Source: Escherichia coli
GTDB lineage: Bacteria; Pseudomonadota; Gammaproteobacteria; Enterobacterales; Enterobacteriaceae
NCBI RefSeq assembly: GCF_013122565.1
Contig: NZ_CP053258.1
DNA length: 64,000 bases
Reading direction: 5' to 3' (one strand)
In this document: positions 1 to 55,234 of the stretch, in pieces
Layout of the letters: every line of letters starts with the position of its first letter
Numbering within the stretch: the stretch's first letter is position 1
Notes under the pieces: model-generated
Database searches by the model: none
What the model saw: the letters and a program-made list of their open reading frames with translations, nothing else
What the model was told of the DNA's origin: nothing
Program-made: the position numbers and the translations under genes

Positions 1-1051
1 CAATTAATTTAAATCTTATTATTTGATTAACAAAGCATCATCATTACTGCATCTTATTCTCTATATCTTTTACGTCGGGGTAGATTCTTTATGGTCATTA
101 CGGGCAGGCGACATTTCATTATATTACCATTTGCATTCACGCTTGTAACCCTTAAGAGTTATATAAAAAGGAAAGAGTTCTTGCTCATGGTATTACTGAG
201 ATCGGATTAACCATGAGGTTAGCTATATAGAGAGCTTTGGCTTTGCGACAATTGGCTTAAGCAGCCACATTATGCCTGGCTTATCGTTGAAAGGGAGAAA
301 GAAGAGCAAAACGGTTTGGCAAGCTTTCATTCCCATCTAATAGCAATCACCGCTATACATCATCCCTTAACGTATTCTGGTCTTCATAAAAATGTTATTC
401 TAAATTAAAGATTGTAATGATTTTAATAATGTTGTTATTATTTTGCAACAAATCAATATAACACAATGATTATTCGCGATTTTTTATTAGTTAAGAGGAA
501 TTGTTTTTACAGATTGCGCTACAATTCCGCTCATTTCTCACCACAGGAAAAGCTGAAGTAATCTTAAATGACTGTATTAACCCTTTTCTCCGCTGCCAGC
601 ACTCTTAAATATCGTTGTTTTATTCTTATAAAAACGGCTTTTTTGACATAAAAAGTAATAGGTTCAGCCATTATGCAGAATTTACAACCTGAGAAAATCG
701 CAAAAAACACTCTTATTCAGAATAAAACTCTGTTTATCATCTTTCGGTAAGCATTAAATTACTATATTACCGTTCAACATGAGTATGAATGAAAATTCAG
801 TTGTTATACATGTGATGAATGTCATATATTGTGCTCATCGATTGCAGGACATCGCTATTCTTTTAGAGATACAGATATCACGCTGTTACTCTCTAATATA
901 AAGAACACGCAAAGATTAGTTGTGTTACTGCAGTTGTTATGTCGCATATGGAATGCCCATTGTTACATCTTTAGTAAAAAGCTTTATTCACTTTCAAAAT
1001 TTTTACTCCATGAAGATAGGCTGTTTTGCTGCAAGCAATTGAGTTAGTGCA

Positions 1052-1675
1052 ATGAACAAGAACTTACTAACAAGGGTAATTATCATTTCGGATGATCTAT
1101 ATTACCTTCAGGGATTAAGTGCAAAACTAGGTCACCATTATCGTTTTTTTATTGAGTGTTTTTTTTGTTCTCAAAATGCATGCAATAATGACCTAAGTAC
1201 ACTTAGATTTGACAACCGCTTTACAAAAAACGTACTTCTTGTCGCAGTGGATGACGTAAGTATACTTGCAAAACTGCCAGATTTGGCCAGGTTTTTAATG
1301 ATTGTTTCACTAAGAAAGATGAAAAACAGAAATATCTTCTTTTCACTTTCAGAGCAAACATTCATTAGCCGATATATAAAATTGAATAAACTCATTACTT
1401 TGATTAAAAGTACTGATAAAGACCAGCAAGTCAGGCAGGTGACTCTGACAAGGTATGAGTGGGATATCTATTACTTATTTTTTAAGATAGATAACAAAAG
1501 AATATTGCACACCCTGCTAAAAAAGGATGTCAAGTATATTAGTCACTATAAAATATCAGTTTTTAATAAGTTTGAAATTGCTTGTGATAGTGATGGCTTT
1601 TACATTTTCAAGGCACTTATACAGTTAAGGAGATTTACCCGTTTTAAAAACGTCAGATTGTATCAATTGCATTAA
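1052..1675 (+). CDS. Putative LuxR-family (FimZ/EcpR-like) transcriptional regulator immediately upstream of the fimbrial operon; the receiver-like N-terminus appears degenerate
   Basis: 207-aa ORF. C-terminal segment LTRYEWDIYYLF...KDVKYISHYKISVFNKF resembles a LuxR/FixJ-type HTH. Very AT-rich codon usage. Position directly 5' of the fimbrial major subunit gene. No similarity search was run. Confidence 0.45.
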   Translation: MNKNLLTRVIIISDDLYYLQGLSAKLGHHYRFFIECFFCSQNACNNDLSTLRFDNRFTKNVLLVAVDDVSILAKLPDLARFLMIVSLRKMKNRNIFFSLSEQTFISRYIKLNKLITLIKSTDKDQQVRQVTLTRYEWDIYYLFFKIDNKRILHTLLKKDVKYISHYKISVFNKFEIACDSDGFYIFKALIQLRRFTRFKNVRLYQLH

Positions 1676-1717
1676 TTAACTCGTTCTATATTAACTCTAA
1701 ATTTCAAGGATATTAAT

Positions 1718-2278
1718 ATGTTTTCTACTTTCAAAAAAGCAGCTCTGCTGGCAGCTATTGCATTACCTTTTTCAACTATGGCTGCGCCTACAGTCACTTT
1801 TCAGGGTGAAGTAACCGATCAGACCTGTTCCGTAAATATCAACGGTCAAACCAATTCAGTAGTATTGATGCCGACCGTAGCCATGGCTGACTTCGGTGCA
1901 ACTTTAGCTGATGGTCAGAGCGCAGGCCTGACGCCGTTTACGGTTTCTGTGTCTAACTGCCAGGCTCCAACTGGTACAGATCAGGCAATCAACACCACCT
2001 TCCTGGGCTACGACGTTGACGCTAGCACGGGTGTTATGGGAAACCGTGATACCAGCAGCGATGCGGCGAAAGGCTTTGGCATTCAGTTAATGGATTCCAG
2101 CACTTCTGGTAACCCAATAACTCTGGCTGGCGCGACTAACGTACCGGGTCTGACCCTGAAAGTTGGCGATACCGAAGCCAGCTACGACTTCGGTGCGCGT
2201 TACTTCGTTATCGATAGCGCTGCTGCCACTGCCGGTAAAATTACCGCTGTCGCAGAATACACCCTGAGCTACCTCTAA
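1718..2278 (+). CDS. Fimbrial major subunit (type-1/FimA-like pilin) of a chaperone-usher pilus
   Basis: 186 aa with an N-terminal signal peptide (MFSTFKKAALLAAIALPFSTMAA). FimA-like mature N-terminus TVTFQGEVTDQTCSV and a second Cys forming the conserved pilin pair. C-terminal beta strand ending AVAEYTLSYL. Confidence 0.8.
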   Translation: MFSTFKKAALLAAIALPFSTMAAPTVTFQGEVTDQTCSVNINGQTNSVVLMPTVAMADFGATLADGQSAGLTPFTVSVSNCQAPTGTDQAINTTFLGYDVDASTGVMGNRDTSSDAAKGFGIQLMDSSTSGNPITLAGATNVPGLTLKVGDTEASYDFGARYFVIDSAAATAGKITAVAEYTLSYL

Positions 2279-2342
2279 TTAATCTACTGGCTGGCAGTAA
2301 ATGTCAGCCAGTATTTCTTTGCACAATTAATAGTGATTTTTC

Positions 2343-3065
2343 ATGGACATGGAAAAGATAAGAATGAACATTTTTGCATATTTACTGGTACTTGTATTTT
2401 CCATGAGCATGAGCAGCAGCGCGTTTGCCAGCGTGGTAATGACCGGAACCCGTATTATTTTCCCTGGTGACGCAAAGGAAAAAACCATCCAGTTGCGAAA
2501 TACCAGCGATCAGCCCTATATCATTAATATCCATGTTGAGGATGAACGTGGTTCTGACAAGAATATACCGTTTATGCCAACCCCGCAGACATTTCGCATG
2601 GAAGCTGCCGCAGGTCAGGCGTTACGCCTGCTCTACACTGGTGATAATTTACCGCAGGATCGCGAGTCTGTTTTCTGGTTTAGTTTCAGTCAACTACCTT
2701 ATCTGAATAAGAACGATAAAAGTCAGAACCAGCTCATCCTGGCCCTGACTAATCGAGTCAAAATTTTCTATCGTCCCAGCTCAATTGTCGGTAAATCCAG
2801 TGACGCGCCAAAAAACCTGACTTACCAAGTAAAACAGAACCGCATTGAAGTGACGAATCCCACGGGCTATTACGTCGTGATTCGCGCCGCTGAACTGCTT
2901 AATAACGGTAAAAAAGTCCCCCTCGCGAATTCCGTCATGATTGCTCCTCAAGGCAAAACTGAATGGACACTACGCACTGGCATCAGCGTCGCTCCCGGTG
3001 CGCAGATTCATTTAGTGACCGTCAATGACTATGGCGTAAATGTCACGTCTGAGCATGCCTTATAA
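2343..3065 (+). CDS. Periplasmic fimbrial chaperone (PapD/FimC family)
   Basis: 240-aa ORF containing a signal peptide and PapD-like motifs (RIIFPGDAKE..., LPQDRESVFWFSF, RVKIFYRP). The true start may be an internal Met (MNIFAYLL...). Confidence 0.85.
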   Translation: MDMEKIRMNIFAYLLVLVFSMSMSSSAFASVVMTGTRIIFPGDAKEKTIQLRNTSDQPYIINIHVEDERGSDKNIPFMPTPQTFRMEAAAGQALRLLYTGDNLPQDRESVFWFSFSQLPYLNKNDKSQNQLILALTNRVKIFYRPSSIVGKSSDAPKNLTYQVKQNRIEVTNPTGYYVVIRAAELLNNGKKVPLANSVMIAPQGKTEWTLRTGISVAPGAQIHLVTVNDYGVNVTSEHAL

Positions 3066-3117
3066 GCTCTTTCCCCTTTTTTGAGCGGTATCCTTTTTCA
3101 CGCACGAGTATGTCGAG

Positions 3118-5640
3118 ATGAATAAATCCGTTGTGTCAATTTCTGCGGCAATATTGGTTTTACTCTGCCAGCCGGTTATGGGGAAAGAAATCTCACCCGC
3201 TACACCGTCAGATGAAGATAACTACACCTTTGACCCGCAACTCTTTCGCGGCAGCAGATTTAGTCAGTCGTCATTGGCAAAACTGACAACTCGTGAGTCT
3301 GTTGCACCGGGTAATTATAAAATGGATATCTACACCAATAATAAGTTGTCAGGCAGTTGGAATGTCACGTTCAAAGAAGCCGCTGATGGTCGCGTTCTGC
3401 CCTGCCTGACGCCTGAAGTCGCGGACGCGATAGGCCTCAAAACAGGGGAAGATAAGGGTGAAAAAGATCCGGTCTGTACCTTTGCTCAGGAACTCGCTCC
3501 CGGCATCACCAGCCAGACACAGTTGTCACAACTACGCCTTGACTTGTCGGTGCCTCAGAGTCAAATGATTAGTCGCCCTCGCGGCTATGTCCCCCCCAGC
3601 GAGCTGGATACCGGAGCATCGCTGGCGTTCATGAATTATATTGCCAACTATTACAACGTTGCCTATTCAGGGCAGAATGCTCATAGCCAGCGTTCGCTAT
3701 GGGCATCATTTAATGGTGGCATCAACCTTGGTGCCTGGCAATATCGTCAGTTATCCAACATGACCTGGGATAATGACAAAGGGAATCAGTGGAACAATAT
3801 TCGTAGCTATTTGCAACGCCCGCTGCCCGCCATAAATAGCCAGTTAATGATGGGGCAGCTTATCACCAGCGGAAGATTTTTCTCTGGACTCAGTTATCAC
3901 GGCGTTAGTCTCGCGACCGATGAACGTATGCTGCCGGACTCCATGCGCGGCTATGCGCCGACTATTCGCGGCGTGGCCGCAACAAACGCCAGAGTCTCGG
4001 TAATGCAAAACGGTCATGAAATATATCAGACCACCGTGGCTCCTGGCCCTTTCGAGATAAACGACCTATACCCCACCAGCTACAGCGGCGATCTGGATGT
4101 CACCGTTACGGAAGCTAACGGCGCAGTCAGTCGTTTCAGTGTCCCCTTTTCAGCCGTACCAGAATCGATGCGTCCAGGAACTTCCCGTTATAACGTGGAA
4201 GTAGGTAAAACGCAGGATAGTGGTGATGACTCGATGTTTGGTGACCTTACCTGGCAGCACGGGATGACTAATACGCTGACATTTAACAGTGGTTCGCGTA
4301 TCGCTGATGGCTACCAGGCGCTGATGCTGGGCGGAGTCTATGGCAGTTCGCTGGGGGCATTTGGGGCAAACCTCACTTGGTCCCATGCGCGTGTTCCCGA
4401 AAGCGAAGCGCAGAGTGGTTGGATGTCGCAATTAACCTGGAGTAAAACTTTCCAGCCTACTTCAACCACCGTCTCCCTGGCAGGTTATCGATACTCTACC
4501 AGCGGCTATCGTGATCTGGCTGATGTGCTGGGAGAGCGTCATGCTGCCAGCAATAAACAGTCATGGGACTCCAGCCAGTGGCGTCAACAGTCGCGCTTCG
4601 ATCTTACGTTAAGTCAGAGCCTTGCGAATTACGGCAACCTGTTTGTGTCAGGTTCAACACAGAACTACCGTGGCGGCAAAAGCCGTGATACACAGCTTCA
4701 GTTAGGTTACAGCAATAGCTTTAGCCATGGCATCAGTATGAACCTTTCCGTCGGACGCCAAAGAATGGGCGGCTATAAAGACAATTCTGATGATATGCAG
4801 ACGGTAACATCCCTTTCATTCTCATTCCCACTTGGCGGCAATGGACCTCGTGTACCAAGTCTTAGCAACAGCTGGACCCATTCAACTGACGGTAGCTCGC
4901 AATTACAAAGCTCGCTAACCGGAATGCTTGATGAAGCACAGACCACCAACTACAGCCTGAACGTCATGCGCGATCAACAATATAAGCAGACGACGCTTAG
5001 CGGAAACATGCAAAAACGTTTTTCACAAACTACCGTCGGATTGAACGCATCGAAGGGCCAGGATTACTGGCAGGCTTCAGGTAACGTACAAGGCGCGATG
5101 GCTGTGCATGGTGGCGGCATTACTTTCGGACCTTATCTGGGTGAAACGTTCGCCCTGGTCGAAGCTAAAGGCGCAGAAGGTGCAAAAGTCTATAACTCCA
5201 GTCAGCTGGAAATTAATGACAGTGGCTATGCGCTTGTTCCGGCAGTAACGCCCTATCGATACAACCGTATATCTCTCGATCCACAAGGAATGGATGGCGA
5301 TGCCGAGTTGGTCGACAGTGAAAGACAGGTAGCACCGGTTGCAGGTGCGGCGGTGAAAGTAATTTTCCGTACCCGTCCTGGTAAAGCGTTGCTGATTAAA
5401 TCCCGCATGGCAGATGGTTCGGAACTGCCAATGGGAGCCGATGTGCTGGATGAGAATAATACAGTCGTCGGTATAGCCGGTCAGGGGGGGCAAATTTACC
5501 TCCGCACAGAACAGACAAAAGGCCACTTGTCAGTTCGCTGGGGTGAAGGTGCTAACGATAGCTGCCAATTGCCCTTTGATATCAGCGGGAAGGACAGCAA
5601 TAGCCCTATCATCCGCCTGAATGAAACCTGTCAGTCTTGA
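3118..5640 (+). CDS. Outer-membrane fimbrial usher (FimD/PapC family)
   Basis: 840 aa with a signal peptide, of typical usher size, placed between a chaperone gene and an adhesin gene. Gln/Ser/Asn-rich beta-barrel composition. Confidence 0.9.
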   Translation: MNKSVVSISAAILVLLCQPVMGKEISPATPSDEDNYTFDPQLFRGSRFSQSSLAKLTTRESVAPGNYKMDIYTNNKLSGSWNVTFKEAADGRVLPCLTPEVADAIGLKTGEDKGEKDPVCTFAQELAPGITSQTQLSQLRLDLSVPQSQMISRPRGYVPPSELDTGASLAFMNYIANYYNVAYSGQNAHSQRSLWASFNGGINLGAWQYRQLSNMTWDNDKGNQWNNIRSYLQRPLPAINSQLMMGQLITSGRFFSGLSYHGVSLATDERMLPDSMRGYAPTIRGVAATNARVSVMQNGHEIYQTTVAPGPFEINDLYPTSYSGDLDVTVTEANGAVSRFSVPFSAVPESMRPGTSRYNVEVGKTQDSGDDSMFGDLTWQHGMTNTLTFNSGSRIADGYQALMLGGVYGSSLGAFGANLTWSHARVPESEAQSGWMSQLTWSKTFQPTSTTVSLAGYRYSTSGYRDLADVLGERHAASNKQSWDSSQWRQQSRFDLTLSQSLANYGNLFVSGSTQNYRGGKSRDTQLQLGYSNSFSHGISMNLSVGRQRMGGYKDNSDDMQTVTSLSFSFPLGGNGPRVPSLSNSWTHSTDGSSQLQSSLTGMLDEAQTTNYSLNVMRDQQYKQTTLSGNMQKRFSQTTVGLNASKGQDYWQASGNVQGAMAVHGGGITFGPYLGETFALVEAKGAEGAKVYNSSQLEINDSGYALVPAVTPYRYNRISLDPQGMDGDAELVDSERQVAPVAGAAVKVIFRTRPGKALLIKSRMADGSELPMGADVLDENNTVVGIAGQGGQIYLRTEQTKGHLSVRWGEGANDSCQLPFDISGKDSNSPIIRLNETCQS

Positions 5641-5655
5641 TACAGAGAAAACCCG

Positions 5656-6990
5656 ATGTCTAAATCGACTTTATTACACATTCTGATTAGCTCCATCATA
5701 TTGGTGGCACTAATACAATCATCCGCTTGGGCTAACTGTACAAACACACAGATAGGTCAAACTGAAGATGGTCGGACAGCGCTTATTGAGTTCGGAAAAA
5801 TTAATATGACCGACACCTATTTTGCGCCAGCAGGTTCACTCCTCGCGACAACGGTCGTACCTCCCACTAACTACACATCAGGTGGCGCGACAGGAAGCTC
5901 AGTATTGTGGGAATGTGATGCAACAGATTTGCCAAACATCTATTTTCTGGTCGCTACCAATGGCGACGACCGCGTGGGGGGCTTTTACGATGCAGGCGGG
6001 CCTGATGGTCTGAGTGATGTCTATGCCACCTGGTTCGCTTTTGTCGGTCTCAAGCAGACCATGGCGGGCGTGACGCTTGGTCGTTACTGGAAGAAAGTGC
6101 CCATCACCAGTTATGCCACTCAGGGAACTAAAATCCAGATTCGCTTACAGGATATCCCTCCTCTTCATGCTGAGCTTTATCGCATCAGTACGCTACCTGA
6201 TACATCAGCAACAACAAGTTGGTGCGGTAATAATAATACAGATGGTAGTGGAGTCGGATTCGCAAAACCTTCCGGTACAATCTATAACTGTGTTCAGCCC
6301 AATGCCTATATTCAGCTTTCCGGTACCAGCGGCATTTTATTTGGTCATGATGAGCCCGGCGAAGATAGTTCTGTTCATTGGGATTTCTGGGGTGCTGATA
6401 ATGGTTTTGGTTACGGAATGCGTTCGGCCAATCGACTCTACAACAATGCCACCTGCGTTGCCCGCAGCGCCACGCCGTTAGTATTGCTGCCGACAATTGC
6501 AGAAGCACAACTGAATGCGGGCATGGAAAGTACCGGTAATTTTAATGTCCGCGTCGAGTGTAGTAACTCGGTTCAATCAGGGATTAGCGATACTCAGACA
6601 GCATTAGGAATCCAGGTGTCTGAAGGTGCATATACAGCGGCGCAAAAACTGGGGATTATCAATAGCAACGGCGGCGTCAGCGCCCTGGTCTCTGATAATT
6701 ATGACGCAGCAGAGATGGCAAAGGGCGTTGGGATCTACATTTCTAACAGTGCTCACCCCGATACGGCGATGACGCTGGTTGGTCAACCGGGCATCGCGAA
6801 GTTAACCCCCGGAGGAAATGCAGCGGGGTGGTATCCTGTATTTGAAGGGGCAACATTAGAAGGTGCGACTCACCCCGGATACTCCAGCTATAGTTACTCT
6901 TTTATCGCCCGGTTGAAGAAACTGCCAAATCAGACAGTCAGTGCGGGAAAAGTGCGGGCAACGGCTTATATATTGGTGAAAATGCAATGA
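5656..6990 (+). CDS. Putative fimbrial tip adhesin (two-domain: N-terminal lectin-like domain plus C-terminal pilin domain)
   Basis: 444 aa with a signal peptide (MSKSTLLHILISSIILVALIQSSAWA) and several Cys pairs. Pilin-like C-terminus ...VRATAYILVKMQ. Located after the usher; its stop overlaps the downstream chaperone start (ATGA). Confidence 0.6.
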   Translation: MSKSTLLHILISSIILVALIQSSAWANCTNTQIGQTEDGRTALIEFGKINMTDTYFAPAGSLLATTVVPPTNYTSGGATGSSVLWECDATDLPNIYFLVATNGDDRVGGFYDAGGPDGLSDVYATWFAFVGLKQTMAGVTLGRYWKKVPITSYATQGTKIQIRLQDIPPLHAELYRISTLPDTSATTSWCGNNNTDGSGVGFAKPSGTIYNCVQPNAYIQLSGTSGILFGHDEPGEDSSVHWDFWGADNGFGYGMRSANRLYNNATCVARSATPLVLLPTIAEAQLNAGMESTGNFNVRVECSNSVQSGISDTQTALGIQVSEGAYTAAQKLGIINSNGGVSALVSDNYDAAEMAKGVGIYISNSAHPDTAMTLVGQPGIAKLTPGGNAAGWYPVFEGATLEGATHPGYSSYSYSFIARLKKLPNQTVSAGKVRATAYILVKMQ

Positions 6991-7676
6991 AATCCGTTTT
7001 GCTCCTCTTAACCGTCTTGTTCGTACAGTCAGTGGAAGCCGGCATCATGCCGGCTTCTTCACGGATTATTTATCGCGATGGCGATCGGGAAAAGACACTG
7101 ATGCTGGTCAATACCAATGACTATCCGGTACTGGTGCAAAGTTGGGTAGATAATGGTGAAGGTTCCCCAGAATCTGCTTCTCCCCCCTTTGTGGTGCTGC
7201 CACCGGTTTTCCGCCTGGCTGCGAGACGAACCCAGGGGTTGCGGATTATCTATAATCATGACCCACTTCCCCAGGATCGCGAATCTGCATTCTGGTTAAA
7301 TCTTTATGAAATGCCGCCAGAAACTCCCCATCAAGATCCCACACATTTAACGCTGGCAATGAATACGCAACTTAAAATCTTTTACAGGCCAAAATCTGTA
7401 ACTATGACGCCCCAAGAAGCTATGCGTAAAATAAGTTGGCATCTGGGTAACGACGGCAGCAGTAGCTATATTGAGCTTAATAACCCAACACCACTGAATA
7501 TCTCTTTCACCTCCATCAGCATTGGGGCTACAAAGGTGCAGCAAGAAAGCGATATGATGATAAAACCCTTCAGTCAACGACGGTACTGGTTAGCAAGTAA
7601 TAACGTTAGTGGTGTGGTTGCGGCGACATATCTCGATGATAATGGTGCACAGATAAAACAACAATTAGCGCAATAA
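6987..7676 (+). CDS. Second periplasmic fimbrial chaperone (PapD-like)
   Basis: 229 aa with a signal peptide and the motifs RIIYRDGDREKTLMLVN, LPQDRESAFWLN and LKIFYRPKS. Start codon overlaps the adhesin stop codon, suggesting translational coupling. Confidence 0.8.
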   Translation: MKSVLLLLTVLFVQSVEAGIMPASSRIIYRDGDREKTLMLVNTNDYPVLVQSWVDNGEGSPESASPPFVVLPPVFRLAARRTQGLRIIYNHDPLPQDRESAFWLNLYEMPPETPHQDPTHLTLAMNTQLKIFYRPKSVTMTPQEAMRKISWHLGNDGSSSYIELNNPTPLNISFTSISIGATKVQQESDMMIKPFSQRRYWLASNNVSGVVAATYLDDNGAQIKQQLAQ

Positions 7677-7821
7677 TGCTCTGAGTGGTATGTAAACTCA
7701 TCGCGATGGTTCAACGCTAACGAATAACCACTATACCCACCTGAAGTACCGGAAGTGGAGAAATGACAACATCTCTCCACTCCATTTTCCAGTCAAAACA
7801 CCTCAACGCAGCCAAAAATCG

Positions 7822-8613
7822 TTAACGAATTGAATATCCACCATCAATGACTAATAGTTGTCCATTGACATAATCTGAAGCGGCACTGGCGAGGAACACC
7901 ATTGCGCCCATAAGATCCTGTGCCCTTCCCCAGCGTTGAGCCGGTATACGCCCTTTTATTAACTCTTTTATTTTAGGGTTATTATAAATAATAGCGGTCA
8001 TTTCACTCACATAATATCCTGGGGCGATACCATTAATCTGAATATTATATTCCGCAAAATCATCGGCATACGCTTTGGTCAGCCCCGCTAAAGCATGTTT
8101 AGTCGCCGCATACCCTGGCGACCAACGTCCCCCATGAAATGACAATACGGAACACATATTAATAATTTTCCCTTTTCTTTGCGGGACAAATATATTCAAT
8201 GCGGCCTGGCTCATATCGAATGCAGCATTCAGGTTGAGATTAATCATCGGATCCCAGTCGTTTCGATTGAAATCGATAGGACGATTAAAGTTACACACGC
8301 CCGCGTTATTGACCAGAATATCTAACTGACCGAAACGCTCCAGACACCTATTAATAATGGTGCATGCTGCATCAGGTTTTGTTATGTCTATTGTCATAAA
8401 CTCAACTTCAACGCCTTCATGAGTTAAATGCTTTAAATATCTATTATCAGGCTCTTTGATGTCTACCAACAATAGATTAGCCCCTGCTTTGGCCAGAGCC
8501 GAGCATAAGCCTCTCCCCAGCTCACCCGCGGCCCCAGTTACGATGGCCACCTTGTTATGTAATGAAAAAAAATCCAATGAAAAATCTTCAATAGAAAAGC
8601 TCATATCACACAT
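7822..8613 (-). CDS. Short-chain dehydrogenase/reductase, KduD-like (2-dehydro-3-deoxy-D-gluconate 5-dehydrogenase paralog)
   Basis: 263 aa. Rossmann motif VAIVTGAAGELG, NNAG motif, catalytic Y-x3-K (SPGYAATKHA), and a C-terminus ASDYVNGQLLVIDGGYSIR closely resembling KduD. Start may be the Met three codons downstream. Confidence 0.8.
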   Translation of the reverse strand: MCDMSFSIEDFSLDFFSLHNKVAIVTGAAGELGRGLCSALAKAGANLLLVDIKEPDNRYLKHLTHEGVEVEFMTIDITKPDAACTIINRCLERFGQLDILVNNAGVCNFNRPIDFNRNDWDPMINLNLNAAFDMSQAALNIFVPQRKGKIINMCSVLSFHGGRWSPGYAATKHALAGLTKAYADDFAEYNIQINGIAPGYYVSEMTAIIYNNPKIKELIKGRIPAQRWGRAQDLMGAMVFLASAASDYVNGQLLVIDGGYSIR

Positions 8614-9291
8614 TGCTCCTTATGAGTAAGTAATATTTAAGGGATAATTTAAGTAATTTTTAGATTTCAATAAAAAAATATAAACATTAAAACTCAGCAT
8701 GAATAATAAACATCAAATCTTATATACATTTAAGTAGTGATGTATCACGTAAAAATATAGTCATCATAGATGTTATGCAGTACGCACAAAAAAACAGACT
8801 GGATTTGCTTGCTGATCTATAATCTTTATCTAAATTACTATTGGCGCTTTGGATAATAACATAAGCATATATTACCTCCTAGCAATAATAGACATAACCT
8901 CATATCAAGGTGTCACTGGTAAATAATCGGATAAAGGACAGTACCGGTCGGCACATAGAGCTTCTTCTATTTCACCAGAAGTGCACAGCAGGGAACTACC
9001 AATCACACGGTTAGTGTCATGGGTGGAGGATGCGTCCCGTTCTTTCCCAATAACGGGGATACGCAGTTTTTATCAGTACATGCAGAAAAACCCCTAATTC
9101 ACATCACTGCAGAAAGCATTTAATAGAAATATACATCGTTTAAGAATTTCAATTAAATCAAGATTATTCTTAAAAATCAGATAATTCACATTTGCATTTT
9201 TAGGAAATTATACTATAGTGCAATTAATGTTCTTGCCTTTATTTTGTAAGTAATACTGGATTTGTAATACACAACTAAGGTATAAAATGTA

Positions 9292-10104
9292 ATGATCTAC
9301 ATTATAAATGATGAAGTAAGATTCAACTCATCATCTAATAAGTTAACATCACTCCTTACATCAGAGGAAGTGATACTCACTTATCCTGCGGGAAAATGCT
9401 TAAAATTACTTTTAGATAACGCTTATAGTGTCGTATCGCACAATCAATTCTTTGAAAAAGTCTGGAGCGATAGCAGCGCTGAAGTCGCAACCAATACTTT
9501 ATATCAAAACATTTCGATGATAAGACGCTCCTTTCGTGAAATCAGCTCATCGACGATATTTAATGATATTATCAGAACGGTGCCGCGTAAGGGTTTTAAA
9601 ATCAATGAAGAAATCAACATAACTGTTCTCGACAATAATCATACTGAGAATGAAAGTGTTGAGAGTGAAGAGGATGGTACCCACATTGAAAATATAAATA
9701 AAAATCATGTTGCAAAAGATATTTTCACCACAAAGAATACATTACTTATAGTGTACTTTTTTGCGGCATGGGGGATAGTGTATATATCTTCTTATTTTTT
9801 CGATATGGCTTTTCAAAGCAAAGCTCACACTATAAAAAAAACAGATGCTTTCTCAAATTATGCTCAACATCCTACTCAGGAAGGGTGTAGCTATTTCTAT
9901 GACAATATATATTTTAATTCCGTAGACATGTTATCACCGATTATTGAAAAATTGCAGAAAATGGAAATTAACTGCAAAATACATCCTTACATTTACATTG
10001 CAACAAATGATAGCATGAGCGGGTTTTATGCTTTCACCTGTAGTCAGATGTTAAACTCTGAATCACCAAATAATTGTAATTCTCTCTATTATAAAGCGGA
10101 GTAA
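9292..10104 (+). CDS. Membrane-anchored ToxR/CadC/MarT-like transcriptional regulator (N-terminal OmpR-type winged helix, one TM segment, Cys-containing periplasmic domain); resembles E. coli YqeI
   Basis: 270 aa. Winged-helix signature ...FFEKVWSDSSAEVATNTLYQNISMIRRSF...IIRTVPRKGFKI. Acidic linker followed by a hydrophobic segment NTLLIVYFFAAWGIVYISSYFF. About 100-aa C-terminal domain with four or more Cys. A GG-containing RBS-like motif lies upstream of the ATG. Confidence 0.7.
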   Translation: MIYIINDEVRFNSSSNKLTSLLTSEEVILTYPAGKCLKLLLDNAYSVVSHNQFFEKVWSDSSAEVATNTLYQNISMIRRSFREISSSTIFNDIIRTVPRKGFKINEEINITVLDNNHTENESVESEEDGTHIENINKNHVAKDIFTTKNTLLIVYFFAAWGIVYISSYFFDMAFQSKAHTIKKTDAFSNYAQHPTQEGCSYFYDNIYFNSVDMLSPIIEKLQKMEINCKIHPYIYIATNDSMSGFYAFTCSQMLNSESPNNCNSLYYKAE

Positions 10105-10108
10105 TCAT

Positions 10109-10600
10109 ATGACTCAAAGATATTTTCTATTTGCGGGAATAATTTTATGTGCTTTTATTGCAGCAATTCTTAGCCATATTGCGTTTCATCATGCCAATGA
10201 ACCAGCAGAGCAAAACATATCATGTAATGCCCATGTTATTAATTTCACCGATCATACGAAAATGGATCAATACTTTTCGTTAAATATGATTTCTGAAAAT
10301 AATACAGGGAATATGTATCTCACGGGTGCTTACACGGTAAATGGGAAAAAAATGGGTTTCATCCGCCGATATGTGAGTTTTACATACAAGAAATTCCGTG
10401 ATACCGTTTATTTCACCACAGTTAAAATACAAAAAATACAAAAAGATGATAACATTAGTGATGAAATCCTTGAAAATATCACTTCTGATTTTTTCATAAA
10501 AGTAGACACCTCAATTAATTTTTATGTTACACGTCAAAATGATTACAACTACGTATTCTCTACAGGCAGGACACCACGCTTCATATGTATTTCCCACTAA
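10109..10600 (+). CDS. Small N-terminally anchored periplasmic partner protein (ToxS/FidL/YqeJ-like) of the upstream ToxR-like regulator
   Basis: 163 aa. Starts 4 nt after the upstream stop (coupled). Single N-terminal TM (YFLFAGIILCAFIAAILSHIAF) followed by an Asn/Thr-rich periplasmic domain. Size and arrangement match ToxS/FidL-type partners. Confidence 0.5.
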   Translation: MTQRYFLFAGIILCAFIAAILSHIAFHHANEPAEQNISCNAHVINFTDHTKMDQYFSLNMISENNTGNMYLTGAYTVNGKKMGFIRRYVSFTYKKFRDTVYFTTVKIQKIQKDDNISDEILENITSDFFIKVDTSINFYVTRQNDYNYVFSTGRTPRFICISH

Positions 10601-10700: not shown

Positions 10701-12215
10701 TTATCTGTTTACATACCACTGATAAAACTCTGTCGCTTTCATTGGTTTTGCATATAAGTACCCCTGAACTAATGTCACGTTATTATGAATAAGATATTCC
10801 GCCTGGTGAGGAGAACTGACACCTTCTGCAATCGTTATCAAATTTAGTCGATTACTCAGCTTAATAATAATATCTAAAACTGGCGTTTCGTCTTCCGCTG
10901 TAGTGAGTGTGTCTATAAAGCTTTTATCTATTTTAAGATAATCAACAGACAACTTTTGTAGAAGGCCAAGGGAACAATATCCCGTGCCAAAATCATCAAC
11001 TGCAAATTCACAGCCATGGATCCTTAATTCATTTATTTTCTGTAATGCAAGATCAGTGTCTTCAACCAGATTGCGTTCGGTAATCTCAAGGACAATATTA
11101 AATTTATCAGATATTGCATTTTTAATATGTAAAACATCAGCAACAAAGTCAGGATGTGCAAGATGTTCCGCGGCAATATTTATCCCAAGGTGAAACGGTT
11201 TTTTCACTTTCCAGCTTTGTACATCCTGAATAATCAGTTCAAAGAGATGCTTAGTTAACGGTATTATTAAATTTTCCTCTTCTGCCGCGCGGATAAAAAC
11301 TACCGGAGATATATTTTTACCATCTTCGCGTTGCCAGCGCATTAACGCTTCAACCCCCAGACACGCTTTGGTTGTCGTGTCGCACACTGGTTGATAATGC
11401 ACAGAAAATTCTCCGGATGACATTCCTTTTTTAATTTCTTCTGCCAGCGACATTTTCCGTGACATCCAGTGCTGCCATAAGAAATAGAGAATAAAAGAAA
11501 GAATAATAGATAACGGCAAAATATAAAGCACATTGCTAATGATATAGGGATATAACGAAATCATCGGCGTAGTAACTGTAAGACGAGCCTGACTGTTCGC
11601 AGAATTAAAATCTCTTTTTAACATATATAACCTGTCATTATTATTTACACCACTAATAATTGCAGGCCCTTCAGTAAAGCGAAGAGAAAATGAATCATCA
11701 TTCTCATCATCAAGAACATCCATTAGATCATAGATATATCGTGACTCGACAATACTAAAAGCTGTCATATTATTCCCTAATGGCATAAGGAACACTATGG
11801 CTGTTTTACCTGGTACAAAACTTGTTCCGCTAATTGATACTATGCGTGATTCTTTATTTTTATTGTGAAAGCTCGTACCGTAAACATCGTTAACATTCAT
11901 TTTTTTGAAACCGCTAACTGAAGAACATATTTGGAAATTATTTTCTATAAGACCCGTTGTTCGAACATAGGGAGTCAATGCTCCGTTAGCAATCAACTGC
12001 TCCAGGATATCTTTGCAGGGTTTCATCACCAGAATAGAAGTAAGCTTTGTCGTATGCTGGACAATTTGCGTAACATTATCAAGCTGTTTTAACAGAATAC
12101 CGGCGGTAATTGTCGTATCTCTATTCATTTGAAATATTGACATAGCAAACGATAGTAACACCCCCAGAATGCCTGGTATTATAATGAGTACAAACATTTT
12201 TTTGTTGAATACCAT
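10701..12215 (-). CDS. pdeT: CSS-motif EAL-domain c-di-GMP phosphodiesterase (PdeT/VmpA-like), absent from K-12
   Basis: ORF 10701..12311. Probable start is the Met at 12215 (MVFNKKMFVLIII...), immediately before TM1. Periplasmic domain with CSS motif (QICSSVSG) and a second Cys, then TM2. EAL domain with intact EAL (GVEALMRW), LEITE and DDFGTGY motifs. The gene name is assigned from memory of the EHEC vmpA/pdeT locus next to dgcT. Confidence 0.75.
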   Translation of the reverse strand: MVFNKKMFVLIIIPGILGVLLSFAMSIFQMNRDTTITAGILLKQLDNVTQIVQHTTKLTSILVMKPCKDILEQLIANGALTPYVRTTGLIENNFQICSSVSGFKKMNVNDVYGTSFHNKNKESRIVSISGTSFVPGKTAIVFLMPLGNNMTAFSIVESRYIYDLMDVLDDENDDSFSLRFTEGPAIISGVNNNDRLYMLKRDFNSANSQARLTVTTPMISLYPYIISNVLYILPLSIILSFILYFLWQHWMSRKMSLAEEIKKGMSSGEFSVHYQPVCDTTTKACLGVEALMRWQREDGKNISPVVFIRAAEEENLIIPLTKHLFELIIQDVQSWKVKKPFHLGINIAAEHLAHPDFVADVLHIKNAISDKFNIVLEITERNLVEDTDLALQKINELRIHGCEFAVDDFGTGYCSLGLLQKLSVDYLKIDKSFIDTLTTAEDETPVLDIIIKLSNRLNLITIAEGVSSPHQAEYLIHNNVTLVQGYLYAKPMKATEFYQWYVNR

Positions 12216-12408
12216 ACATGTTTCCCCACGCATCAGGGTGATGCAACCTAAGAAATTATAGTACAATTGCCAGTAAAAGCGGGTGATAGCAGATTGATCA
12301 ATGATAAGCATTTAAGATCATATAGTACTATGATATTTCTGAAAATTGTTACGCAAGTCTGCGAATAGCTATTTAGCGCTTACCAAAATCACCCGCTAAA
12401 ATGCCGCT

Positions 12409-13767
12409 TCATGGTGACTCACAAAAATTCACCACATCCCTCACAACCACCTTATTACGCCCGGTCTCTTTCGCCTCGTATAGTGCGTTATCAGCCAGTC
12501 GATAGATCTCATTCGGGTTTAACGCATTTTCCTGAGTCACAACAGCGCCAATACTAATCGTCACTTTTTGTGGTATGGCGTATTCAGGATTATCGCCAGT
12601 TAAACGCTCAACATTTTCCCGAATCCTTTCCGCTAAAGCTTTCGCACGTTCAGTATCGATGTCCGTCAGCAAGACGCCAAACTCTTCGCCGCCGACGCGC
12701 GCAAAAAGGTCATCTGGCCGTATGCTTTTCCCAATGATATTCACCACTGTTTTTATCACCTGATCGCCAACCGGATGCCCCCAGGTATCGTTGACTTTTT
12801 TGAAGTGGTCGATATCCATAATCATGACGCAATAAGGCGTTTTTTTGGCTGATGCTGATTGAACTGTCAGTTCATTAAAAAAATAATTTCTGTTAAATAT
12901 ATTGGTTAAGGAATCGCGATGTGCAATGTCCTTTGTTACTCGTAGCGCACTGAATATATGGCACATAAATATTACCATAACGGTTAACTTACTGACTACT
13001 TCAATAGTGCGACTAATATACCAAGTGGACACGCTATACCTGCTCATAAATAACAGAGAGATATTGTACAGTACGGCACAAAAAGCAATCACCGTCACTC
13101 CATTCCAGATATCATAGCGTAAACCATTAAAGTATAGATTAACCGAAAGCAAGGTTAACCACATGAAAATCATTATGGTAACATATGATGTTTTCCAAAC
13201 CACCTGATCATTTTCATTGGTTAACTCGGCAATGTGTAAATTGTAGCTCTCATAATGACTAGAAAGTATGTGAGCAACTATCGGCCCCCCAACAACAAAA
13301 AACAAACTTATGCACAAAGTCATTTTTTTGGAAAATAAATTGCGCTGTTTTGTGTTTTCACTAACTTTACTCACCAATGCCAGAAATATTAATATGCACA
13401 AACTCATCTGACGAAACAAATAATAAATTGCAATGTCATTTTGAACAACACTGCTTGTCAAACGCCCCTCAATAATTTGCTGAATGATAATGACGGTTTT
13501 AACAAAGTAAATCAAACAACTCAGAAAAGCCAAACTAAGTATACAGTTTGAAAATTGCCTACGGTCATAAATGAAATACAACTGCATAAAAATAAATGCA
13601 ACAGTATCGATAAAAAATAAAGCAATCATTACCATCAGATAGGTTGATCGTGGAACAACTTCCTCAACGCCTGGCTGATTAAACCAACTATTCACCAAAA
13701 CCAAAGCAAGCCCAAACAATAAGCTCACTAATACAGTACTACTAATTCTCAAATAGTCTTTTTCCAT
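12409..13767 (-). CDS. dgcT: Diguanylate cyclase DgcT (YcdT): multi-TM sensor domain plus GGDEF domain
   Basis: Near-identical to K-12 YcdT from MEKDYLRISS... (the ORF extends 24 codons further upstream to 13839). GGEEF active site and RPDD I-site are present. Divergent from pgaA, as in K-12. Confidence 0.95.
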   Translation of the reverse strand: MEKDYLRISSTVLVSLLFGLALVLVNSWFNQPGVEEVVPRSTYLMVMIALFFIDTVAFIFMQLYFIYDRRQFSNCILSLAFLSCLIYFVKTVIIIQQIIEGRLTSSVVQNDIAIYYLFRQMSLCILIFLALVSKVSENTKQRNLFSKKMTLCISLFFVVGGPIVAHILSSHYESYNLHIAELTNENDQVVWKTSYVTIMIFMWLTLLSVNLYFNGLRYDIWNGVTVIAFCAVLYNISLLFMSRYSVSTWYISRTIEVVSKLTVMVIFMCHIFSALRVTKDIAHRDSLTNIFNRNYFFNELTVQSASAKKTPYCVMIMDIDHFKKVNDTWGHPVGDQVIKTVVNIIGKSIRPDDLFARVGGEEFGVLLTDIDTERAKALAERIRENVERLTGDNPEYAIPQKVTISIGAVVTQENALNPNEIYRLADNALYEAKETGRNKVVVRDVVNFCESP

Positions 13768-20587: not shown

Positions 20588-21652
20588 TTAACTGTATGCA
20601 TGTAGCGTACGTTGGCAAAGTGCCGAACGTACGCAATCCTCTTTACCGAATCGGACGATCCCGACCATTTCATCTTCTTCGAAACGTTCCAGTGCGTCAC
20701 TTAATCCGGAGCGCACGCCGCGAGGTAAATCGCATTGCGTGATATCACCGTTAACGATAACCGTCACGTTCTCCCCGAGGCGGGTTAAAAACATTTTCAT
20801 TTGCGCGGCAGTCACATTCTGCGCCTCGTCAAGAATGACAACTGCATTTTCAAAGGTACGTCCACGCATATAGGCGAACGGCGCAATTTCCACCTTCCCT
20901 ATTTCCGGTCGCAGGCAGTACTGCATAAAGGAAGCCCCTAAGCGCCGGACCAGCACGTCGTATACCGGGCGAAAATAGGGAGCAAACTTTTCTGCGATAT
21001 CTCCAGGTAAGAAGCCAAGATCTTCATCGGCTTGCAGAACTGGACGGGTGACGATAATCCTGTCGACATCCTTATGTATCAGGGCCTCTGCCGCTTTTGC
21101 TGCGCTGATCCAGGTTTTTCCGCACCCGGCTTCGCCCGTAGCGAATATCAGCTGCTTACTCTCAATAGCCTTCAGATAGTGCAATTGCGCTTCATTTCGC
21201 GCGAGGATGGGCGAAGTATCGCGACTGTCGCGGGCCATACCAATGGCTTCTACGCCGCTCATCTGCACAAGCGAGGTGACCGATTCTTCTTCACGCTGCT
21301 TATGGCTGCGCGAATCCCGTCTCAGCACACGTTTTGCCTCGCGACGAGCTTTGATCACTGCTTTTTGTCTTCCCATGGAGAGCACCTTGAGTTGTTTGTA
21401 TTCATCACACGCGCCGTTGGCAGCGCGATTATGCGCACGAACATCAGAGGGTTGGCTTCCTTGTAAGCCATAGTTTGCTTTTGGATAAAATGCCGAAAAA
21501 CGGCTACGCGCACCGTTTACGGCGTCGGTAACACATGAAAAGAAAGGATGAGGTTGAAAATGCAAAGTGACGAGATGACTACCGGAGGAGAAAACTCCGC
21601 GAGTGGTGGCGCGTTGATTATCTAAAACATGTCCAGTACAGGACGTTACCAT
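20588..21652 (-). CDS. phoH: PhoH, phosphate-starvation-inducible ATPase
   Basis: 354 aa; matches K-12 PhoH (MVTSCTGHVLDNQRATTRGVF...); Walker A GEAGCGKT. Confidence 0.95.
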   Translation of the reverse strand: MVTSCTGHVLDNQRATTRGVFSSGSHLVTLHFQPHPFFSCVTDAVNGARSRFSAFYPKANYGLQGSQPSDVRAHNRAANGACDEYKQLKVLSMGRQKAVIKARREAKRVLRRDSRSHKQREEESVTSLVQMSGVEAIGMARDSRDTSPILARNEAQLHYLKAIESKQLIFATGEAGCGKTWISAAKAAEALIHKDVDRIIVTRPVLQADEDLGFLPGDIAEKFAPYFRPVYDVLVRRLGASFMQYCLRPEIGKVEIAPFAYMRGRTFENAVVILDEAQNVTAAQMKMFLTRLGENVTVIVNGDITQCDLPRGVRSGLSDALERFEEDEMVGIVRFGKEDCVRSALCQRTLHAYS

Positions 21653-25289: not shown

Positions 25290-25346
25290 GCCACCCACCC
25301 TTAAACGTTTTTCTGAGTCAATCTATGCAAAGAAAAGTAAATCGCA

Positions 25347-25366
25347 GTGATAGCGATTATCATTAC
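25347..25366 (-). promoter_or_regulatory. Candidate Fur box in the efeU promoter region
   Basis: gtgatagcgattatcattac; its reverse complement TAATGATAATCGCTATC resembles the Fur consensus GATAATGATAATCATTATC. Lies 60-80 bp upstream of the efeU start. Confidence 0.5.
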
Positions 25367-25831
25367 GGCAAAGAAAAACACAAGCGGAATGTTTATAAAA
25401 TGATGTTGGAATGTAAACAAAGAGAGGTAATGCCAGGGGATATAAACGATTATTCCAGGGTAGAAAGATGGGATTGTTTGCAAAGAACCATGTGTTCTTG
25501 CCGGATGCCGCGTAAACGCCATATCCAGCCGACAAAACTGTCCAGACTCAATGCATCAGAGCTTCCATGTAAAACTGATAAGCGGGTGTATCAAGCAATT
25601 TCGTCCATCCGCGATTATCAAATCTAACTTTTTGCCCGGAACATAATAACAGCTCGGGTGTTGGTGGCGTCAAAATCGCTGAAGCGTTCCCCGAAGGCCG
25701 GGACAGCAGGGGGCGGCGGCGATTGGCCGCCCCCTGCGCGCTCCCTGCACCATTCAATTTATATGGCGAGGCACATTAAGGGAGCGCAACCCGCTGCTGA
25801 AGCCAAACAAAACCGCCGCAGGCTAAGTCCC

Positions 25832-54563: not shown

Positions 54564-54735
54564 GGTCAGTGCGTATTTGCAGCGCGACGTTATCAAAGGT
54601 GATCATCGTCGATTTACAAAAAATACACTTAGCGCCCAAAGGGTTTCGCTCCGTCACATCGAATGCCGATGTACGGTACTGTGAACCATGACAATATGGA
54701 CAGCGGAAATGGAGATGTTGAGTAATAACGGCAAC
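54538..54735 (-). CDS. Possible small zinc-ribbon protein (YmcF-like) immediately downstream of cspG
   Basis: ORF 54538..54798 carries CPYC-x20-CIFC. Its ATG lies inside cspG, so a GTG start just after the cspG stop (giving about 65 aa) is more plausible. Confidence 0.3.
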   Translation of the reverse strand, partial: VAVITQHLHFRCPYCHGSQYRTSAFDVTERNPLGAKCIFCKSTMITFDNVALQIRTDHAPLDFTK

Positions 54736-54736
54736 C

Positions 54737-54949
54737 TTAGAGCGTAACAACGTTCGCTGCCGCGGGGCCACGTTGCCCCTGCTCAATAGAAAATTCAACT
54801 TTCTGATTTTCGTTCAGCGTGCGGAATTCATTGCTCTGGATGGCGGTGAAATGGACGAAAACGTCTTTGCTGCCATCATCAGGAGTGATAAAGCCAAAAC
54901 CTTTATCTGCGTTAAACCATTTTACTAAACCAGTCATTTTATTAGACAT
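54737..54949 (-). CDS. cspG: CspG, cold-shock protein
   Basis: 70 aa, [34 protein letters not shown]... Confidence 0.95.
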
Positions 54950-55234
54950 ATTTTACTTCCTTCATTTTGGGCCTTTCGGCAAACAGGGCTTTAATACAGA
55001 AACTACTTAGTGTTCAGGAGAGAGACTCAAAAGAAGGGGATAATGCCTGATAATGAGAACTGCTTTAGTAAACTACTTTGTATGCTGTCTGTCTTTCAAA
55101 CCGACGCAGCTATTAACGCATGATAATTGAGATTAAGCAAATTTTATTTTAGCCGTCCGGCGGTCTTAAATATCGCTGGCTTTATTTTATTAACCCCGTA
55201 TAGTGCAGCGCAGTATTTTCAGTAAGGAATTTGT

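Follow-up and report, generated by a model that had tools for sequence, protein, structure and literature searches.

Gene content and organization of the locus

We analysed a window of 64,000 nucleotides of Escherichia coli DNA (contig NZ_CP053258.1), in which positions 1052 to 7676 hold a chaperone-usher fimbrial operon of five core genes preceded by the gene of a putative regulator. The cluster is an intact copy of a fimbrial operon of enterohaemorrhagic E. coli (EHEC) already known as "loc6" or "type 3-like", which belongs to O-island 47 (OI-47) of E. coli O157:H7 and has been catalogued since 2005-2013. Taken as a whole, the explanation that joins this identity to a five-gene core, assigned in print to the gamma4 clade, with the layout of the Stb fimbriae, and to the mechanism of assembly proposed below, appears to us highly probable. 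The locus is composed of the following features, with the corresponding genes of O157:H7 strain Sakai given by their ECs numbers:

1..1051, + strand: upstream non-coding region, AT-rich (33% G+C), presumed promoter/regulatory region
1052..1675, + strand: putative orphan regulator, 207 amino acids (ECs_1281, annotated "hypothetical"), cytoplasmic
1718..2278, + strand: major pilin, 186 amino acids (ECs_1280), with signal peptide and FimA-type fold
2285..2313, + strand: candidate attenuator stem-loop, from the terminator scan
2364..3065, + strand: first PapD-family periplasmic chaperone, 233 amino acids (ECs_1279), start as in RefSeq for identical loci
3118..5640, + strand: usher, 840 amino acids, with the Pfam domains PapC_N, Usher and PapC_C
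5656..6990, + strand: two-domain StbD-like subunit, 444 amino acids (ECs_1277), presumed tip adhesin
6987..7676, + strand: second PapD-family chaperone, 229 amino acids (ECs_1276), with the Pfam domains PapD_N and PapD_C

The original prediction, made from the letters and a list of open reading frames (ORFs), described an operon with two chaperones and a large, two-domain adhesin-like subunit, and family and domain matches agree with this description. The six ORFs are real as it gave them: consecutive, on the + strand, intact and free of internal stops. The ATGA overlap that it reported between the genes of the 444-residue subunit and the second chaperone is found at 6987-6990, with the ATG at 6987-6989 and the TGA at 6988-6990. 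A truncation or frameshift of the usher or pilin, which it had named as a danger to its reading, was looked for as well; all frames are open and the usher domains are complete. The ORF list offers the first chaperone an alternative in-frame start at 2343, which would lengthen it to 240 amino acids. By inspection, signal-peptide-like N-termini are present on all five core proteins and not on the 207-residue protein, whose gene has the same orientation as the pilin gene and stands 42 bp upstream of it.

Base composition changes along the region: the G+C content is about 33% over 1-1500, stands at 47-53% over most of the five structural genes (about 2000 to 7500) and returns to about 33% from about 8500 on. 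The stem-loop at 2285-2313 has 12 pairs followed by a T-rich run and begins 7 nucleotides 3' of the pilin stop codon, where attenuators that favour the pilin are commonly found; the examples of fimA and papA make it a candidate attenuator, through which pilin transcript would come to exceed that of the downstream genes. Concerning the non-coding region 1-1051, promoter-like hexamers are no commoner in it than in shuffled sequence. An invertible promoter switch was considered there and set aside, as the region offers only imperfect AT-rich inverted repeats, none of them convincing, and no recombinase gene is found nearby. The paired GATC sites of Pap-type control were likewise looked for, and inspection of 1-1051 gave a single GATC. 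The Rfam scan of the window returned no match within 1-9300.

Identity and distribution of the operon

A gene-by-gene comparison matches the window genes to ECs_1281-ECs_1276 of E. coli O157:H7 Sakai, each protein differing at 2-7 residues. The Sakai locus has the same gene order, the same gene lengths and the same neighbours (grvA, a FidL-like gene, vmpA, ycdT/dgcT and pgaABCD). The literature describes this fimbrial cluster of O-island 47 / S-loop 71 under the names "loc6" and "type 3-like" (names and clade in PMC3559732, bioRxiv 10.1101/2020.04.13.038984 and PMC5258702); Wurpel 2013 placed the usher in gamma4 as "type 3-like" (PMC3559732), and O-island 47 itself spans z1528-z1556 (PMC8565820). 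As defined in print, loc6 comprises ECs1276-1280 and leaves out the gene of the 207-residue protein (bioRxiv 10.1101/2020.04.13.038984). The statement of the original prediction that the cluster could not be assigned to a named fimbrial type has to be withdrawn, and its concern that the operon might be identical to a characterised type with known function applies in one half only: the type is named and catalogued, while a known function does not come with it.

A megablast search with the 6625 bases gave matches in 401 of 5426 complete E. coli genomes, 374 of which contain a near-full-length copy (80% or more of the region at a single place). Across the full 6625 bases, identity to O55:H7, O157:H7 and other E. 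coli is 99.0-99.9%; the closest match is the baboon isolate PapRG-04-4 (99.9%), with O55:H7 and O157:H7 at 99.0%. Further copies, at 95.7-96.6% identity, are found in pig, mink, gull and human isolates, and on this account the limits set in the literature, to EHEC, enteropathogenic E. coli (EPEC) or phylogroup E, are too narrow. At the protein level, E. coli alleles are 73-92% identical.

Two observations concern the relation of the window to its closest relatives. Compared with O55:H7 CB9615, positions 2751-3750, which run from the last part of the first chaperone gene into the first part of the usher gene, show 46 differences in 1 kb, whereas the remainder of the operon shows 0-3 differences per 250 bases; the divergent stretch looks like a recombination patch. 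PapRG-04-4 carries an additional 447-residue hypothetical gene between efeU and putP (L003 26466-27809) that is absent from the corresponding place in the window (about 25300-25830), and the window therefore comes from a different strain.

Outside E. coli, relatives were sought by scanning one genome per species with conserved peptide patterns, which returned 34 loci, from Serratia, Kosakonia, Klebsiella, Pluralibacter, Leclercia, Pantoea, Erwinia, Rosenbergiella, Arsenophonus, Dyella, Stenotrophomonas and many Acinetobacter species. All 34 present the order pilin, chaperone, usher, 444-residue subunit, chaperone. Relatives are also present in Castellaniella and Paraburkholderia, and Pseudomonas citronellolis has the same five-gene operon, with a homologue of the 444-residue protein that is 56% identical. 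In P. citronellolis (L049 10037-17299) the operon is followed by four genes, for a canonical receiver-GerE response regulator, for a hybrid sensor kinase, for a receiver-EAL protein and for another hybrid kinase, a Roc-like set of neighbours that suggests two-component and cyclic di-GMP (c-di-GMP) control of this fimbrial family. Acinetobacter calcoaceticus JUb89 (L035 3-11539) has two tandem copies of the operon, the first of which is without the second chaperone.

Pilin, chaperones and usher

A complete usher, a PapD-type chaperone and a pilin of the PF00419 fold make this a classical chaperone-usher system. The pilin, which had been called FimA-like, indeed matches NCBIfam fimbrial subunit models over its full length and has the FimA-type fold; PF00419 is carried by an 88%-identical homologue, and only 3 residues differ from the Sakai pilin. 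The usher contains PapC_N at residues 37-177 (E 1e-30), Usher at 197-750 (E 2e-151) and PapC_C at 759-822 (E 4e-21), all complete, and NCBIfam usher models match it along its whole length. Its best NCBIfam model is PRK15248, at 701 bits against an equivalog cut-off of 996, which we take to be the Stb usher model because its accession falls between those of the StbD and StbB models.

The assignment of both chaperones to the PapD family is borne out, by Pfam for the second and by NCBIfam for the first. The first has full-length NCBIfam chaperone matches (E 5e-49) and an 81%-identical homologue with both PapD Pfam domains, and both PapD cleft residues are recognised in it by inspection, as the R of GTRIIF and the K of VKIFYRP. 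The second has PapD_N and PapD_C and is a classical PapD-type chaperone with two Ig-like domains. The two are paralogues, 32% identical. In 33 of the 34 related loci the second chaperone gene lies directly 3' of the gene of the 444-residue subunit, often overlapping it or within 30 nucleotides. Given this conserved adjacency and precedents in other systems, the second chaperone is most likely dedicated to the adhesin, as the original prediction had suggested from the overlap.

The 444-residue subunit

Pfam finds PF00419 (Fimbrial) in the 444-residue protein at residues 263-444 only, a segment that also aligns weakly with the major pilin. In this protein a signal peptide is followed by a receptor-binding domain of about 237 residues at the N-terminus (about 26-262) and a pilin domain at the C-terminus (263-444). 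The N-terminal domain is predicted to be a receptor-binding domain similar to those of MrkD and Abp1D, on the basis of an AlphaFold model built from 49 homologues, with a predicted local distance difference test (pLDDT) score of 91.5. Structural alignment with MrkD/Abp1D gives 10-13% identity only (MrkD 13%), and a search of the solved structures by sequence with the adhesin profile gave no match at E <= 1. A predicted receptor-binding domain at the N-terminus, without a donor strand there, and a pilin domain after it are the layout of a two-domain tip adhesin.

Over the 34 loci this is the best conserved protein of the operon, with a mean identity of 57%, compared with 54% for the pilin, 53% for the usher, and 45% and 40% for the chaperones. 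Its most conserved stretch lies inside the binding domain (residues 41-180) and includes an invariant loop rich in Gly and Asp, N102 G103 D104 ... G108 G109. Because the binding domain is very highly conserved across distant bacteria, its ligand may be a widespread, conserved and non-host-specific one, rather than one that would set a host-specific tropism.

Comparison with known fimbrial systems

The closest layout among named systems is that of Salmonella enterica Stb (stbABCDE), which has the same five genes, including a subunit of about 440 residues and a second chaperone. Stb belongs to the gamma4 clade, and its two chaperones have been interpreted as subunit-specific, with the 987P fimbriae as precedent (PMC3373541). 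StbD is the sole NCBIfam model that matches the 444-residue protein, aligned over residues 23-444. The scores are 701 bits against an equivalog cut-off of 996 for the Stb usher, 113 against 363 for StbD and 115 against 550 for StbB; since all of them fall well under the cut-offs, the operon and Stb are, on sequence grounds, distant homologues and not orthologues. The conserved peptide patterns of the relatives scan picked up no StbD-type Salmonella locus.

The gene set is not that of type 3 fimbriae (Klebsiella mrkABCDF): a second chaperone stands in place of an MrkF-type subunit, and MrkD is resembled in fold only, at 13% identity. The binding domain is also larger, about 237 amino acids compared with 163-167 residues in the MrkD1P/Abp1D chains of Klebsiella type 3 and Acinetobacter Abp. 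Relative to Klebsiella mrk, the operon presumably lacks the MrkF-type minor subunit, for which it has the second chaperone, and the mrkHIJ genes.

The original prediction had likened the gene order to that of ecp/mat operons. The ecpRABCDE / mat order is LuxR-type regulator, pilin, chaperone, usher, large tip subunit, second chaperone, and the Ecp usher belongs to a different (alpha) clade. The resemblance holds for layout only and not for homology, no Ecp/Mat model being among the NCBIfam matches of the six proteins. The CupA system of Pseudomonas aeruginosa (cupA1-A5) likewise presents the order subunit, chaperone, usher, second subunit, second chaperone (PMC3639982). A link to CupA4 was sought with the P. 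citronellolis homologue as seed, and the best 120 relatives included no protein of P. aeruginosa.

The 207-residue upstream protein

The first gene had been described as a LuxR-like regulator; what stands of this is the predicted fold, of the GerE/LuxR type, and not a significant sequence match, as the protein has no Pfam or NCBIfam match, PF00196 included. The predicted model (pLDDT 82) shows an N-terminal half of alternating strands and helices followed by four C-terminal helices, which form the four-helix bundle of the GerE fold. A receiver-like domain joined to a GerE/LuxR helix-turn-helix is accordingly supported by the predicted fold and not by sequence statistics. PF00196 reaches E <= 0.1 in only 2 of 11 homologues, and a profile search against the sequences of the PDB brings up the RcsB C-terminal domain, weakly (E 0.3-1) and in the correct register.

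The family is small, since an exhaustive search of 1.84 billion representative proteins found 11 relatives only. Its alignment retains D14, D15, D/E66, S86 and R107, together with LTxxE...KxxSxxK near the C-terminus. The protein is probably a divergent orphan relative of the NarL/RcsB-type response regulators.

Its relatives stand in diverse contexts. A copy that is 55% identical occupies the same place in a divergent, syntenic Escherichia-type island whose structural proteins are 73-88% identical to those of the window. A 33%-identical relative follows a gene encoding an EAL domain only (EAL-only) and lies directly upstream of a different chaperone-usher operon. Two further relatives come after EAL-only genes, with a ToxR-type regulator (Trans_reg_C) next to them and a small ORF downstream, an arrangement that resembles that of grvA and the FidL-like gene; one of these two is then followed by YadA-type adhesins. 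Thus, the pair formed by an EAL-only protein (253-268 amino acids) and a homologue of the 207-residue protein recurs in three unrelated contexts (L007 3-1384; L042 5215-6648; L044 5184-6597), and may be an unannotated regulatory pair linked to c-di-GMP. In these distant homologues an EAL gene lies upstream; a decayed counterpart upstream of the regulator gene was searched for by tblastn and none was found.

Because the gene is missing from the other-genus loci and has the low G+C of the grvA side, it is probably a lineage-specific addition from a regulatory module and not ancestral to the operon. As GrvA is a paralogue of YqeI (33% identity), homology of the 207-residue protein to K-12 YqeH was tested and rejected, being not significant (BLASTP E 0.21, hhalign probability 3.5%).

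Proposed assembly and alternative readings

Following the established chaperone-usher pathway, all five core products would be exported by Sec, and the two PapD-type chaperones would fold and cap the subunits in the periplasm. The 444-residue subunit should be confined to the tip, because a receptor-binding domain takes the place of the N-terminal donor strand, and would start assembly at the usher; the 186-residue pilin would then be added by donor-strand exchange. The product would be a thin fibre of one tip adhesin on a pilin homopolymer, since the operon encodes neither an adaptor nor a terminator subunit. Of the two chaperones, the one whose gene overlaps that of the adhesin is most likely devoted to the adhesin, and the first to the pilin. 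The hairpin after the pilin gene probably lifts the ratio of pilin over the other products. The 207-residue protein probably acts on the AT-rich upstream region, having been joined to the operon in Escherichia only.

Several results weigh against this reading. Deletion of loc6 (ECs1276-1280) in Sakai left binding to spinach roots at the wild-type level (bioRxiv 10.1101/2020.04.13.038984). IS1203 interrupts the usher in some O157:H7 strains, the usher being intact in the window, and O145:H28 is without the 5' half of the cluster, retaining only the 3' 59% or 12% of the region. As regards the supposed division of labour between the chaperones, identity correlations among the five proteins do not discriminate (Spearman 0.67-0.88, 34 loci). 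The promoter and terminator scans are overall at the level of shuffled sequence, the hairpin at 2285-2313 alone being well placed. As to the regulator, the 207-residue protein lacks a significant sequence match to any LuxR/GerE or receiver family, two of the four kinds of genomic context of its family are non-fimbrial, and none of the 34 loci of other genera has its gene in the operon.

Some of these points feed alternative readings. The operon could be a cryptic, decaying relic in E. coli that yields no functional fibre, as the IS1203 insertions in a set of O157:H7 strains, the truncation in O145:H28, the deletion without phenotype (bioRxiv 10.1101/2020.04.13.038984) and the literature, which calls the function unknown (bioRxiv 10.1101/2020.04.13.038984; also PMC5258702, in 2017), would all agree with it. 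We regard it as very unlikely, given that 374 of the 401 matching genomes have a near-full-length copy, that the six frames of the window are open with 2-7 substitutions relative to Sakai and with all Pfam domains complete, and that induction of the loc6 transcript by lettuce lysate and at 14 C has been published (bioRxiv 10.1101/2020.04.13.038984). This same induction would fit a different proposal, namely that the 444-residue protein is a conserved tip module for a ubiquitous or abiotic ligand, or for cell-cell aggregation, rather than a host-specific lectin, the fimbria then serving environmental biofilms. Its place as the most conserved product of the operon, the invariant loop in residues 41-180 and the inclusion of plant-, soil- and insect-associated genera among the hosts speak for the proposal; the predicted fold, which resembles domains of MrkD and Abp1D that bind host proteins, and the lack of effect of the deletion on spinach roots speak against it, and we hold it as a possibility on the doubtful side.

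The second chaperone could also be a redundant paralogue without specificity for the adhesin, considering that the two chaperones are 32% identical, that both have complete PapD domains and the cleft residues, and that the identity correlations single out no adhesin-chaperone pair. This seems unlikely to us, since the gene has been kept right after that of the 444-residue subunit in 33 of 34 loci across distant bacteria, and the published reading of Stb, with its 987P precedent, is one of subunit-specific chaperones (PMC3373541). A comparable doubt attaches to the role of the 207-residue protein, whose gene might form, with grvA, the FidL-like gene and the EAL gene vmpA, a separate, low-G+C regulatory module into which a foreign five-gene core was inserted; it would then control other targets or c-di-GMP-linked signalling, and not the operon. 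In favour of this are the absence of the gene upstream of the operon in the other genera, its G+C of 33% (32-35% on the grvA side, about 49% in the core), its identity of just 55% in the divergent island compared with 73-88% for the structural proteins, the published definition of loc6, which omits it, and the distant homologues that follow an EAL-only gene among neighbours in the style of grvA and the FidL-like gene, at sites that are non-fimbrial or contain YadA-type adhesins. Its position 42 bp from the pilin gene on the same strand, the pairing retained in the divergent Escherichia-type island and the 33%-identical homologue that again directly precedes a chaperone-usher operon count on the other side, and the separate module is likewise, in our view, a possibility on the doubtful side.

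For the operon as read here, with an StbD-like tip subunit and a joined regulator, a broader proposal can be formulated: that the 444-residue subunit defines a fimbrial module widely transferred among Gamma- and Betaproteobacteria with one conserved ligand, bound through the NGD...GG loop, and that the 207-residue protein founds an unannotated family of regulators with receiver and LuxR folds, elsewhere paired with EAL-only genes. That both parts hold together is quite improbable in our view; if true, such a regulator family would connect the expression of adhesins with c-di-GMP.

EHEC O157:H7 has roughly 14-16 fimbrial loci, this operon among them, and knowledge of its ligand would help to explain the colonisation of cattle, people or plants by these strains. 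Of modest use in the meantime are the findings that the locus reaches beyond EHEC/EPEC, that the adhesin-like subunit is its best conserved product, and that the upstream gene is response-regulator-like by predicted fold and apparently a recent add-on.

Neighbouring genes and other features of the window

The window starts just after divergently transcribed two-partner secretion genes of the otpA/otpB type, which form one flank of the island, and on the other flank are found grvA (ECs_1274), the FidL-like gene, an EAL phosphodiesterase gene, ycdT/dgcT and pgaABCD. The gene that separates the fimbrial operon from grvA (7822-8604, - strand) encodes an oxidoreductase of the short-chain dehydrogenase/reductase (SDR) family and is also present in the divergent syntenic island (L004-L006). 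The grvA gene (9292-10104, + strand) encodes a ToxR-type regulator of the LEE, the enterocyte effacement locus, and of acid resistance in EHEC; along its whole length GrvA shares 33% identity with K-12 YqeI, and it has 13 substitutions relative to Sakai, above every fimbrial protein. The FidL-like / YqeJ_C gene follows at 10109-10600 (+ strand). The EAL phosphodiesterase gene (Sakai ECs_1272, the vmpA of the literature; 10701-12311, - strand) adjoins dgcT/ycdT (12409-13767, - strand) and pgaABCD. The fimbrial island is flanked in this way by the c-di-GMP genes vmpA and dgcT/ycdT, and the distant relatives of the 207-residue protein are themselves paired with EAL-only genes.

Elsewhere in the window, Rfam gives two full-length matches: the Yersinia small RNA Ysr251 at 20593-20786 (+ strand, 188 bits), antisense to the 3' end of phoH, and the cspA thermoregulator 5' untranslated region at 54683-55105 (- strand, 158 bits).

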